Virus record (IMG/VR): IMGVR_UViG_3300032225_000083
Location: 1-34,579 of that record
Direction: 5' to 3' (one strand)
DNA: 34,579 bases
From: a virus
Lineage: Duplodnaviria; Caudoviricetes
Part shown: positions 2,084 through 32,761 of the stretch, piece after piece
How positions within the stretch are numbered: the stretch's first letter is position 1
How the letters are laid out: each line of letters opens with the position of its first letter
The notes under the pieces: model-generated
Database searches by the model: none
What the model was told of the DNA's origin: nothing
Seen by the model: only the letters and a program-made list of their open reading frames with translations
Translations under genes and position numbers: made by a program

Positions 2084-2262
2084 ATCGTAACGGATTAGTG
2101 TTGTCAGATAGCTATATTTATACACCCGCCACAACTGACGTAACAATACGTTGGCGCAAATTGTATAACTGGGTTCCCCCTACTGAAAACCCTGAATTTC
2201 AGCGCAAATGGGCTCGATTTCGTCACATAACTGTTGCAGGTATTGAGGCAATTGGCAAATGA
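2080..2262 (+). CDS. Hypothetical protein
   Basis: GGAGG RBS; ATGA overlaps at both ends. Confidence 0.75.
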   Translation: MNRNGLVLSDSYIYTPATTDVTIRWRKLYNWVPPTENPEFQRKWARFRHITVAGIEAIGK

Positions 2263-2432
2263 CTTTGTGGAGAAAAAGAATAATGCAGGATCATAGGTTT
2301 TGCACCACTTGCAGAAAAAGTAAACCTATTGCTGGTGGTTATAAACAGCCAGGTTTATGCAGAGGCTGGCGTTGCGAAGATTGTTTAAATCACCGCAGCG
2401 TCAGCATTTATGCAAGTAAAAAAAAATTATGA
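2259..2432 (+). CDS. 57-aa Zn-ribbon protein (not in ORF track)
   Basis: RFCTTC...GGY...WRCEDC; GAGG RBS; ATGA overlap. Confidence 0.7.
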   Translation: MTLWRKRIMQDHRFCTTCRKSKPIAGGYKQPGLCRGWRCEDCLNHRSVSIYASKKKL

Positions 2433-2909
2433 CTGCAAATAGATAGCTCGTTCATCTTTACGGCGGTTCTCAAGTCCTTTTAAGACTTTCCCGCCAGACT
2501 TACAATACTTTAAAAACTCGTCGGCAGCACCTTCGTAATCACCGCGATTATGCTTTTGTCTGAGTGTACTGCGCTGTAAAGTTCCAAGCCCAACGTTAAA
2601 ACTGAAGCTGACAAGACTGTCCAGCCAACCTTGCTTATTGCCAGCAGTAGGACAATATTTAAGAACTCCGCGCTCAAATTTTTCCAAATCTTTTGCAAGA
2701 ATTGCATCAACTTCTTCCATTGTAAACAAACGATTCCAACCAGTAGGACAAGGTAGGTACTTCCTATCATCTACCGACAATTTCGTATGACTAGGATCAA
2801 TTACATGCCCAACGCCAACCGTCCACAATTTAGCCGGACATTGATAAGGCTTGAGCCTAACGCCCTCATGATGTTGTATTAACTTAATTGCGTTGCTAGA
2901 AACTTGCAT
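2427..2909 (-). CDS. Endolysin, GH24 phage lysozyme
   Basis: HEGVRLKPYQCPAKLWTVGVGH, SFSFNVG, GLENRRKDE; Cys at the position of the usual Asp in E-x8-D-x5-T. Confidence 0.95.
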   Translation of the reverse strand: MQVSSNAIKLIQHHEGVRLKPYQCPAKLWTVGVGHVIDPSHTKLSVDDRKYLPCPTGWNRLFTMEEVDAILAKDLEKFERGVLKYCPTAGNKQGWLDSLVSFSFNVGLGTLQRSTLRQKHNRGDYEGAADEFLKYCKSGGKVLKGLENRRKDERAIYLQS

Positions 2910-2923
2910 GATATATTTATTGC

Positions 2924-3015
2924 GTTGGGGCGTTAAGCCAGCGTTTGAGGATGTTGATGCAAGATGTTTTCTGGCTTTCCATCTTGCCTAGTCAAAGACC
3001 AAATCAAGCCCTAAC
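2924..3015 (+). ncRNA. Putative pseudoknotted structured RNA
   Basis: P1 2924-2931/3008-3015; stem 2959-2966/2980-2987; loop CTGGCTT pairs with AAGCCAG 2935-2941. Confidence 0.65.
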
Positions 3016-3533
3016 TACTTACCAAATGCTCTCCCGCCAAAATGGAACGCTATGATTGACGCAAACAAAGCCTGGGTTTCGTCATCCCACAACTGATTAG
3101 CCAACGTATTAAAATCAACGCCGCTTGTCAGTCCTTTATAAGCTAGTGTAGCGTCTATAGCCACAAGCAAAAAGAAAAACCCATAAGTAATTACAGGCCG
3201 CACAGATGCTCTTAAATTCTTCATCCATTGGCTTGTGCCTTCATTTAAGCTTATGTCATGGGCGTATATAGCTTGCATCTCCGCTTTTTGTGCGTCGATT
3301 AGCGATACTTTCTCCGCAGAGGCTGTTTGGGTCTTAATCTCGTCTAATTTAATTTCTTCAATGTGTTGCTGTGCTGCATAACCAGCCGCTGCCAATTGCA
3401 CCTCACGGCTAATCTGCATTTGCGCTAGTTCGAGCTCGTGTTTCTTGTCTGATTTATCTTGAAAGAAATCTAATATCTTAGGCAAGCCGCCCATTAAAAA
3501 CGATACAAGCGTTGAAAAAATTGTCAGCATCAT
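3015..3533 (-). CDS. Holin-like membrane protein (3TM-type)
   Basis: LRASVRPVITY and FHFGGR motifs; hydrophobic segments; adjacent to endolysin. Confidence 0.7.
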   Translation of the reverse strand: MMLTIFSTLVSFLMGGLPKILDFFQDKSDKKHELELAQMQISREVQLAAAGYAAQQHIEEIKLDEIKTQTASAEKVSLIDAQKAEMQAIYAHDISLNEGTSQWMKNLRASVRPVITYGFFFLLVAIDATLAYKGLTSGVDFNTLANQLWDDETQALFASIIAFHFGGRAFGK

Positions 3534-3817
3534 TCTCTTTCCATTAAAATTTTAGCGCGTAACTCACGCATTTTTTTTATTTCTATCATTGCGGCAACTG
3601 TTGCGTTGTTCATGTCCATATACATAATACCCATTACAGGAAGAGCGAGCACTAACACAAAACACAAGACCACCACGGCAATGAGTAAGCTCCACGGTAT
3701 GTCTCGCTCGTTCTTATCAGTATCATTAGCCATAGAAACCACAACGTTATGAACATTACCGCGAGAATTGAAGTCATCTGCTCCGCGATTTTTCTTTTTA
3801 AATTTTCCCGTTGCCAT
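3530..3817 (-). CDS. Single-TM membrane protein overlapping the upstream gene
   Basis: Hydrophobic LLIAVVVLCFVLVLALPVMGIMY then coiled coil; ATGA overlap with holin-like gene. Confidence 0.7.
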   Translation of the reverse strand: MATGKFKKKNRGADDFNSRGNVHNVVVSMANDTDKNERDIPWSLLIAVVVLCFVLVLALPVMGIMYMDMNNATVAAMIEIKKMRELRAKILMERE

Positions 3818-28107: not shown

Positions 28108-28467
28108 TTACTCCAAATTTTTAAGTTTGTACAACGTGGAATTAATCAAGTCTGCAATATCATCTATGATATTTTGCAGTTCAGTATCCTGTGGCAGACT
28201 TTCCCGCGCTTCTTCCACAAAGGATTGAATCCCCTCCATATATTCAATAGGCTCTTTAGCCGTATGAAAATCGGAAGGAAATTGGGTAAGGCGTTTGTAT
28301 CGCCCCATATATGATTCGGCAAAATCATCAGTTAAGTCAACAATGCCCTCGTAATATTTTTGTAATGCTTTATGCTTGGAATAACTTGTCGTTGACCAAT
28401 GCATAAAATGCGCTACTGTGCCGCTATGCAACAATGTAGATACAAATTCGGCAACTTCATCATTCAT
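28108..28467 (-). CDS. Ferritin/Dps-like four-helix protein (DUF5856-like)
   Basis: HFMHW....SKHKAL..YY......D.FAE...G; LYKL ending. Confidence 0.8.
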   Translation of the reverse strand: MNDEVAEFVSTLLHSGTVAHFMHWSTTSYSKHKALQKYYEGIVDLTDDFAESYMGRYKRLTQFPSDFHTAKEPIEYMEGIQSFVEEARESLPQDTELQNIIDDIADLINSTLYKLKNLE

Positions 28468-31489: not shown

Positions 31490-32161
31490 TTAAAATAACA
31501 ACTCCTGAGTTTTTACTTTGTAATCTGCATTGTATTTTTTTGTTTCTCCTTTAGGATAATTTTCTTTTTTATAAAGAATTTTTGATTCCAAAAACTTTTT
31601 TTGCGGATTTTTTGCACAAACAAAAATGTACCTATGTTTTCTTGATCTTTCTTTTAAATAAAAATCATCGCCAAACTTTTTCCGCATAAATTCAACACGT
31701 GGCCCTTCACAATTTCTACTTAGGCGAACAATAGTTTGCCCATGCAAATGTTCCATTCCTTTAACTGCATAGTCAGTTCTTTTTGCTGATAACCCAGTAT
31801 AAATAAAATTACAGGCTTGATAGACATAACCAACATGGTTTTGTTCAATGTCTGCATAACTAACTACAATTGAAGGTTTAGGAAGCAATTTCAAACTTTT
31901 AGAAATTAACAAACTGGCACAATTTTTTTTATCTGAATCAATACATAATCTATTTAATTCCAAAACTAAATTGGATAATTCTTTGCCGGCAACTCCATTT
32001 CTTAAAGCTGATGATGATGGCGTCCCATATGTAACAACGCCAATTAATAAGTTTTCATCGTAAAGACCAAAAGCATAAGAAATACTAGGAATTCTTTTTG
32101 CGTAATGTTTATATAAAAGCCATGGTTCAGCCTCTACTTTTTTAATTGGCAAAACTCTCAT
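31490..32161 (-). CDS. Mom-family (GNAT-fold) DNA adenine modification protein
   Basis: KHY, GVVTYGTP, LELNRL, VVSYAD..HVGYVYQACNFIYTG, KHRY. Confidence 0.8.
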   Translation of the reverse strand: MRVLPIKKVEAEPWLLYKHYAKRIPSISYAFGLYDENLLIGVVTYGTPSSSALRNGVAGKELSNLVLELNRLCIDSDKKNCASLLISKSLKLLPKPSIVVSYADIEQNHVGYVYQACNFIYTGLSAKRTDYAVKGMEHLHGQTIVRLSRNCEGPRVEFMRKKFGDDFYLKERSRKHRYIFVCAKNPQKKFLESKILYKKENYPKGETKKYNADYKVKTQELLF

Positions 32162-32220
32162 GCCACCTTCCTTATCTTCTCTGCAATACGTTTATGCCGG
32201 TATTCTTCGCTGCTATTCAT
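32158..32220 (-). other. Chimeric 20-codon mini-ORF / recombination scar
   Basis: MNSSEEYRH + KRIAEKIRKVA; duplicates 31467-31484 and 32777-32794. Confidence 0.8.
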
Positions 32221-32761
32221 AAATTGCTATTGTTTCATTTTGCTTTGGAACAATTAACCCAAAATCATTTATAAATAACGAACTTGTTTGGTATCTATAA
32301 ATATTTACCGTTCTTTTGCTTGATTCTTTCCAGGTATTTTTATGGCTAATACCTTTTCTTTCACCAATTTTTACCCAACCCATTTGTTTCCAGAAAAAGT
32401 TACTTGCTAAATCATCAGCACACCCACAAGCAAAATCTTCTCTACCCACTAAATTACCGTGACTAATAGCGGCAGATAACAATGCTTTGCCTCTTTCAAT
32501 TAATCTTGCATCTTCTTGAATACATATTTGGTTGCACTTAGATACTTTACCGTAACTAAACATTGCAAATCCAACCAAATCATTATTTTCTACGCATACA
32601 AAAATTTTATCGTTGCAAGTTGTACTCCATCTTTTTCCAGTCTTATGACCAGTAATAGCAGCTTCATAGGCAGGGCTTGGTATAAATCCTAACGACAAAC
32701 TTTCTTTCTTAGATAAAGAAATTATGTAAGGTATATCCTCAAGTTTTGCATTTCTAATCAA
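32213..32761 (-). CDS. GNAT-family acetyltransferase
   Basis: IRNAKLEDI, LVGF, QICI..AR...GKALL, SNFFWKQMGW. Confidence 0.85.
   Translation of the reverse strand: MIRNAKLEDIPYIISLSKKESLSLGFIPSPAYEAAITGHKTGKRWSTTCNDKIFVCVENNDLVGFAMFSYGKVSKCNQICIQEDARLIERGKALLSAAISHGNLVGREDFACGCADDLASNFFWKQMGWVKIGERKGISHKNTWKESSKRTVNIYRYQTSSLFINDFGLIVPKQNETIAIYE

Follow-up and report, generated by a model that had tools for sequence, protein, structure and literature searches.

Freshwater phages carry a conserved, pseudoknotted RNA that appears, from sequence comparison, to be a reduced variant within the same superfamily as the Agrobacterium small RNA At1 (Rfam family RF02496) and to form a new subfamily. The copy studied here occupies 92 bases of a complete virus record of 34,579 nt (the window), in which P22-like head closure, portal, capsid and terminase genes are present (PHROGs). 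It is the single copy in that genome (model R1, 107.7 bits) and fills the gap (2924-3015) between a phrog_6637 gene and an endolysin gene, antisense to both minus-strand genes, as an earlier note on this DNA had described; the "holin-like" label which that note gave to the first gene has no support in PHROGs, where the family is of unknown function, or in Pfam (0 matches). Comparison with homologues indicates that the conserved knotted RNA structure in the window is real, and we consider it probable that the element is a discrete small-RNA gene. Its parts and neighbours are the following.

2427..2909, minus strand: flanking gene, endolysin (phage lysozyme; phrog_7, PF00959)
2909..2917, plus strand: predicted extended -10 box TG-A-TATATT, from the sequence and a positional peak in homologues
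2924..3015, plus strand: whole structured RNA motif (reduced At1-like pseudoknot RNA), from covariation and model R1 (107.7 bits)
2924..2931, plus strand: 5' arm of P1, GUUGGGGC, pairing with GCCCUAAC at 3008-3015; 8/8 pairs change on both sides
2932..2944, plus strand: 13-nt 5' bulge made of GUU, the pseudoknot strand AAGCCAG (2935-2941) and CGU, from conservation and pseudoknot covariation
2945..2948, plus strand: 5' arm of P2, UUGA, pairing with UCAA at 3004-3007; 3/4 pairs compensatory, A2948-U3004 invariant
2949..2952, plus strand: GGAU, 5' side of a conserved 4x4 internal loop whose 3' side is CAAA (3000-3003), from conservation
2953..2958, plus strand: P3 (GUU with GAC, 2997-2999) and the weaker P3b (GAU with GUC, 2991-2993), from pairing in homologues
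2959..2987, plus strand: P4 hairpin, GCAAGAUG (2959-2966) with CAUCUUGC (2980-2987); 8/8 pairs compensatory
3015..3533, minus strand: flanking gene, phrog_6637 protein of a function-unknown family (PHROGs; no Pfam match), whose stop codon touches P1

The fold is a long hairpin that bends back on itself, as covariation shows: AAGCCAG (2935-2941) in the basal 5' bulge pairs over 7 bp with CUGGCUU (2971-2977) in the apical loop of P4, which consists of a U-run (2967-2970), this second strand and UC. P1, the UUGA/UCAA helix, the 8-bp stem and the 7-bp loop-bulge pairing had all been recognised correctly in the earlier note. The irregular helix that it drew in the middle, GGAUGUUGA/UCAAAGACC, is in the wrong register and was rejected, its pair 34-77 being broken in 5/69 and its pair 35-75 in 30/67 sequences. 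The replacement, GUU/GAC (2953-2955 with 2997-2999), is paired in 69/69 sequences with compensation and leaves the 4x4 GGAU/CAAA loop, giving the supported order P2 (4 bp), 4x4 loop GGAU/YRAA, P3 (3 bp), weak P3b and P4. Single-sequence folding was near chance and not significant (z of -1.41 on the plus strand, -1.36 on the minus strand and -1.95 for the exact span). The comparative evidence is decisive for the fold. The choice of strand also comes from the homologues, in which G-U cells outnumber A-C cells by 199 to 56, which identifies the plus strand as the RNA and, together with the covariation, supports the structured, pseudoknotted plus-strand RNA that had been proposed.

About 170 distinct homologues were found in freshwater phage contigs, with all helices kept by compensatory change. 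Scanning viral, metagenome and genome contigs with patterns yielded 164 distinct matches, of which 106 have a 7/7 pseudoknot, and a structural descriptor applied to all the loci collected gave 168 distinct copies, which include many close relatives and represent 92 lineages. When a scan fixed the pseudoknot and the U-run alone, an estimated ~400 IMG/VR stretches corresponded to one pseudoknot variant, 120 of these being among the matches listed; the matches listed comprised 106 distinct sequences, namely 103 motif members, one At1-type copy (L678) and two chance matches. Exactly one copy was present in 48/49 carrier records and in 22/22 near-complete ones, the exception being L700, which is At1-type.

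In 98 aligned sequences, 93.5% of the cells are paired and 29/33 pairs change on both sides, in an alignment that was built to the model and is biased towards its pairing; in 69 aligned sequences, at most 93.8% of the cells are paired (range 93.5-93.8% over both sets) and 27/33 pairs change on both sides. Sliding the partners by 1-3 columns lowers the paired cells to 30-48%. The pseudoknot, whose covariation the earlier note had named as a check, is paired in 99.4-99.6% of cells in the 69 and 98 sequences (99.6%, n=98), 5/7 of its pairs being compensatory, and its variants (AAGCCAG, AAGUCAG, AAACAGG, AAGACAG, AAGCAGA, AAGCUCG, AAUCUAG and AACCAGA) each occur with a matching partner. P3 is 99% paired, with variants GCC/GGC, GGU/ACC and GUA/UAC, and P3b 84% (98 sequences). 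In the bulge, G2932 (97/98), U2933, A2935 and A2936 (98/98 each) and C2942 (97/98) are conserved; the first four belonged to the search patterns and C2942 did not. The internal loop reads AGGAUG in 102/103 members and AGGACG in one, found by a pattern that left the loop unspecified, and its 3' side is mostly YRAA. The U-run at 2967-2970 is essentially invariant among the homologues; it was specified in the pseudoknot and U-run scan and left unspecified in three earlier pattern scans. From this invariance and from known motifs, we infer U.A-U base triples and sheared purine pairs in the loop; among the members inspected for triple-helix covariation, one (L690) has a change at the invariant A-U pairs. 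After P4, eight of the 103 phage copies carry an additional hairpin, unrelated to the extra hairpin of At1, and L404, L699 and L706 are shortened members.

The phage core pattern, which catches fewer than half of the members, gave 47 matches in GTDB genomes, with one clear member (L549), located in a lysis cassette on a 4-kb contig of a Methylopumilus MAG. In 151 genomes of the Burkholderiales, the likely host order, R1 matched nothing save one binned phage contig and RF02496 nothing over its cut-off, and as judged by these two models no host counterpart was found there. A weak RF02496 match in a Burkholderiales genome (L803) lacks the motif and appears to be coding. Searching GenBank phages by blastn with two members returned fragments with E ~5 at best, or nothing. 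The motif is not described in the publications that literature searches found; six core words were absent from the searched supplements of Fremin et al. (PMC10690425), whose alignment archives and one table lay outside the search, and the motif may be among the 10,006 candidates of that study.

The Rfam scan that the earlier note had suggested gave nothing at the gathering level in the window, no RF02496 match at E<=10 and, locally, a chance snoRNA match (E 9.3). In E-value mode, the window and 38 homologue-bearing loci (39 in total) had no match at cut-off over the element. RF02496 lands on the element in five reduced-type phage copies, L388, L405, L669 and L415 among them, with 25-30 bits (best 29.7), and scores 42.6 bits on the At1-type L678 of a phage contig; all phage matches at the element are below its gathering cut-off of 60 bits. 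Reciprocally, our models score At1 with ~15 bits (E 0.15-0.2). The word "orphan" in the earlier note fits the window copy, which Rfam misses and leaves unassigned, but not its homologues, which match RF02496 at 25-42.6 bits, below 60, exactly over the element, and whose pseudoknot module is common to At1-family RNAs.

The architecture points in the same direction. At1 and the window copy have the same order of parts, P1, 3 nt, a 7-bp pseudoknot strand starting with AA, C, P2, loop, P3, P4, UUUU, the partner strand and UC, and both have a predicted promoter directly before P1, with one match per positive genome. The bulge RNC-AA-N5-C with its 7-bp loop pairing (UUUU-N7-UC), which 98 phage copies also show, and the helix order P1-P2-internal loop-P3-P4 were found in the window, whereas a family-level score, the extra hairpin and an EcfG-type promoter were not. 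The phage RNA is ~20 nt shorter, since the extra hairpin of At1 (CAACGAAA...GGCAG, between P4 and P3), which is present in L678 and L700, is absent in the window; its promoter is sigma70-like (TG-A-TATATT) rather than EcfG-like (GGAAC...GTT, the consensus given in PMC6599016); its loop AGGAUG/YRAAU is near-invariant, whereas that of At1 copies varies; and it belongs to freshwater phages, whereas At1 belongs to Rhizobiales. Among 14 At1-type copies parsed, the pseudoknot is 7/7 in 13 and 6/7 in one, an EcfG-like promoter lies directly upstream in 13, and the 4x4 GGAY loop is kept in 4, At1 itself keeping GGAU/CAA. The Rfam consensus structure of RF02496 is without a pseudoknot and, to judge from these sequences, needs revision. 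A descriptor common to both sets, written after both had been seen, finds 8/13 At1 loci, the window once and 0 in 1.96 Mb of controls. Taken together, we regard homology of the phage RNA to At1 as probable.

RF02496 occurs in 12/151 sampled genomes of an order holding a Bradyrhizobium genome and on many rhizobial plasmids, and At1-type copies were also found in viral contigs (L700, L703-L705). Those at L678:289-401, L700:1488-1605 and L705 are At1-type with the extra hairpin on AT-rich phage contigs and bridge the two subfamilies; the L700 copy, which is followed by a terminator-like hairpin, lies between two ORFs that by eye resemble ribonucleotide reductase and DNA polymerase. At1-family loci with an EcfG-like promoter and the unmodelled pseudoknot are L685-L697, L703, L704 and At1 itself (NC_003064.2 55274-55161), which lies ~50 nt before ligD on the same strand. 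At1 (= pAT_55271R) is reported as a discrete RNA of 113-118 nt whose level increases in stationary phase. One study sequenced it at 113 nt and saw a single Northern band of 115 nt, most intense at high density (PMC3384568); the other gives 118 nt, validated by RACE, and ~140 by Northern (PMC3738593). The portions of these two reports covered here give no function for At1, and none was found in print.

Where the phage RNA begins is suggested by several kinds of copies. In the window, the extended -10 box puts the predicted start near G2924, where P1 begins. TTGCGT at 2888-2893 is a weak -35-like sequence, and a promoter scan that depends on the -35 did not detect the box. A TAnnnT (at least 5/6) ends 15-16 nt before the conserved G in 20/168 copies and 11 nt before it in 6 short-P1 copies, with at most one copy at each other offset except one with 6. 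Counted over offsets 11-16, a -10 box occurs in 35/168 copies, as against 12, 8, 3 and 8 in shifted intervals. All 13 copies at the lysis junction have one just before P1 (13/13; TATATT, TATAAT, TATACT, TATAGT and TAAACT); the five antisense copies at the SSB/exonuclease site have none. The window box offers a reason for the A/U-rich start region of the lysin, which lacks an obvious SD on our reading as on the previous one, with the caveat that it overlaps this same region. In addition, an unpaired RCC follows P1 in 39/75 promoter-less and 2/17 promoter-bearing lineage representatives (Fisher p=0.003; background 63/637), although it could be slippage of the C-rich arm; the window copy has a predicted promoter and no RCC. 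In tRNAs, RCC is the very part of the end that is described as pairing with RNase P RNA (PMC11143913).

A second conserved stem, CCAACACG-CA-UGRGGAYUG ... CAGUCCYCA-GC-CGUGUUGG, closing a variable interior, was seen directly 5' of the motif in 28/168 copies (L669:170-300, L451, L460, L464, L351, L356, L405 and others) and 3' of it in L360, L458 and L567. It has no Rfam match and shares the 5' arm of the motif's P1, which makes the two folds mutually exclusive; it could be a processing stem or an RNA family of its own. The -10 box, the RCC, a copy lying in a tRNA cluster and this shared-arm stem together suggest, at the level of sequence, a discrete RNA with its 5' end at P1.

The genomic context is varied and shows the element to be mobile between different sites. 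Among the 168 copies, 94 are in sense between two named genes, 18 are antisense, 6 convergent and 50 have an unnamed side, with 33 different pairs of named flanking genes such as phrog_18140/exonuclease (phrog_18140 being, as a guess, SSB-like), nucleotidyltransferase-like/DNA polymerase, TerS/TerL and Dps-like/TerS-like. In sense copies the preceding stop codon is often 7-45 nt away and the following start codon 12-35 nt; one copy sits between tRNA-His and tRNA-Tyr, another just after tRNA-Arg, and six at a convergent junction with a GH19 lysin. The phrog_6637/endolysin lysis junction accounts for 13/168 copies. The upstream gene has a relative in 80 viral loci. There the two genes abut in 65 cases, are separated by an insert in 14 and lack a lysin match in one; two inserts are the RNA element, and another that was examined is a GIY-YIG/NUMOD3 gene (L006). 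On a quick tree of the upstream gene, the element is scattered over 12/78 rows with 5 changes, 3 of them forced by strong branches. A relocated copy in relatives without the element at the junction was sought in 43 of the 80 records, with one match (the known L034) and 0/13 in near-complete ones. The junction itself looks like an insertion hotspot, with several other small ORFs beside the GIY-YIG/NUMOD3 gene of L006; its gaps measure 532 nt (L006, L026, L028, L045 group), 77 nt (L001/L020/L048) and 136 nt (L002/L003), and L017, L055 and L065 also carry inserts. In L391:1196-1313, the strand that bears the motif has, ~170 nt further downstream, a Betaproteobacteria-1 RNA (RF02932, 91 bits).

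No partner gene emerged from these neighbourhoods. The 20 carrier genomes compared have no protein family in common, and DUF5856 (Dps-like), present in 11/20 carriers and 0/9 non-carriers, was rejected as a partner, the RNA being found in 0/36 DUF5856 phage records (0/9 near-complete). A riboswitch or other cis-regulatory leader would lie in sense 5' of related genes, whereas the 33 named pairs are unrelated and 18 copies antisense. Type III antitoxin pseudoknots (ToxI-like) form tandem repeats beside a toxin gene, whereas the phage RNA has a single copy per genome and no shared neighbour gene. A CsrA/RsmA sponge acting through AGGAUG was rejected by reasoning, with a single GGA held in a helix-flanked loop.

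Since a -10 box or an RCC marks P1, copies are single and contexts vary, the element is likely a discrete RNA gene. In its full form, our preferred reading is a self-contained small-RNA gene lying antisense in an optional site between two late genes, distantly homologous to At1, which acts in trans, resists nucleases and binds a host protein; for this whole we see an even balance of chances. For the window copy, the extended -10 box would act as a dedicated promoter, with P1 supplying the first transcribed base. Copies that lie in operons or tRNA clusters would be excised from longer transcripts, in many cases probably by RNase P, given that P1 (~7 bp) and P2 (4 bp) terminate in an unpaired RCC. 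Trimming would bring the 3' end back to P1, and the paired ends, the pseudoknot and the probable U.A-U triples would make a stable RNA. The weakest step is the last, in which a host RNA-binding protein involved in stress or stationary-phase physiology might recognise this shape and be titrated by it during infection; we propose it because the conserved bases lie at tertiary junctions and a conserved single-stranded seed is absent. A bolder version, which we think improbable, is that a bacterial general-stress RNA was captured and minimised, now occurs in hundreds of freshwater phages, undergoes tRNA-like maturation and serves there as a decoy by which a host stress or defence factor, be it a protein or a signalling nucleotide, is neutralised.

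The sense, intercistronic position of 94/168 copies also fits a role in cis, and counts against one in trans. On that account, to which we give a low probability, the element marks a boundary on the mRNA, where it would block nucleases or serve as a processing site and so stabilise either the preceding cistron (SSB, TerS, Dps-like) or the 5' end of the mRNA that follows; the short distances to stop and start codons, the U-tract that follows P1 in 37/168 homologues (the window element has no short hairpin with U-tract of the intrinsic-terminator kind) and the published 3' ends of At1, ~5-12 nt past P1, agree with it. Having one copy per genome does not, nor do the promoter-first and antisense copies, the window's included, which have no adjacent sense cistron to protect, the copy between two tRNAs, or the several At1 copies followed by a terminator or an opposite-strand gene. 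As for the nuclease-resistant end of the earlier note, resistance is plausible, though it would more probably belong to a discrete RNA than serve at the end of an mRNA. That note also offered a lysis-timing antisense element, which we find very improbable. It is true that the window copy has a predicted promoter and runs antisense through the gap ahead of the endolysin, that six other copies sit beside a GH19 lysin, and that the insert replaces the usual stop/start overlap, which makes a side effect on lysin translation plausible; yet only 13/168 copies are at the lysis junction, 65/80 related cassettes abut and 2/80 carry the element, its tree distribution is scattered (5 changes), and both RNA ends are paired, which is poor for antisense pairing.

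A new class of self-cleaving ribozyme is quite unlikely. The compact pseudoknot with invariant unpaired bases would suit one, and intercistronic phage sites resemble those reported as enriched for hammerhead and twister (PMC10085705). In line with the earlier note, which saw no fit to the hammerhead, twister, pistol, hatchet or HDV consensus, the RNA matches none of the ribozyme models of Rfam 15 in the window and the 38 homologue-bearing loci (E-value mode). Pistol has a G|U between stems and a partner hairpin 5' of the paired loop. An AAA stretch and the one-sided internal loop UUAAG...GCG, paired with a hairpin loop, recall it, but the partner hairpin is nested inside in the window, the G|U is absent, and no unpaired base separates P2 from P1 on the 3' side, where pistol cleaves. 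Twister and the c-di-GMP-II riboswitch likewise consist of a long hairpin in which the apical loop reaches back to a basal bulge, but with the partner strand on the 3' side; they have no conserved bases in common with the phage RNA, and the latter has neither an Rfam match to them nor a consistent downstream gene. Moreover, At1 copies do not consistently keep the 4x4 loop, the copy is single, and the predicted start at P1 leaves nothing upstream to remove. At1 is published as an intact stationary-phase RNA, its one 115-nt band matching the sequenced 113 nt, with RACE validation (PMC3384568, PMC3738593), which argues against self-cleavage. The P1 C4 and P4 CI RNAs resemble the promoter-less copies as small phage RNAs cut from a longer transcript, here by prediction, at a tRNA-like acceptor end, but they act through antisense loops, whereas the loop of the phage RNA is locked in a covarying pseudoknot and the window copy has a predicted promoter and no RCC. 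Highly unlikely, finally, is a trans-acting aptamer for a small molecule, such as a stress or immune signalling nucleotide, in place of a protein. The pseudoknot, the U-run and the purine-rich loop are features typical of pockets that bind ligands, and the gene context is too varied for a riboswitch, so that any ligand would be bound in trans; against this, the loop varies among At1 copies, and we know of no natural RNA sponge of this kind.

To At1, which entered the catalogues in 2012, the subfamily adds ~170 sequences that fix the true fold, with the pseudoknot absent from the Rfam model, as well as a minimal version with a 62-nt core and, apparently, three ways of arriving at one 5' end. 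With the estimated ~400 IMG/VR stretches for one variant and 0/39 loci at the Rfam cut-off, a common phage RNA gene is probably going unannotated. The corrected fold and the large variant set make the structure, binding and cleavage of an old orphan directly testable. If the RNA were a decoy of a host stress factor, this would be a new phage strategy, the RNA counterpart of phage sponge proteins, and the mechanism would also explain the orphan At1 family.

The window has some other features of note. On the plus strand, nothing terminator-like was found in 2200-3700, in agreement with the earlier note, which saw no terminator ahead of the element; a terminator-like hairpin with a U-tract at 1411-1437 (read from the sequence) follows an exonuclease gene, and a TTGACA...TAATAT promoter-like site at 1478-1506 precedes small early genes that converge on the endolysin. 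On the minus strand, 28108-28467 is a DUF5856-like gene of the Dps/ferritin type that clusters with the DUF5856 family, 31490-32161 a Mom-like DNA modification gene and 32213-32761 an acetyltransferase gene.
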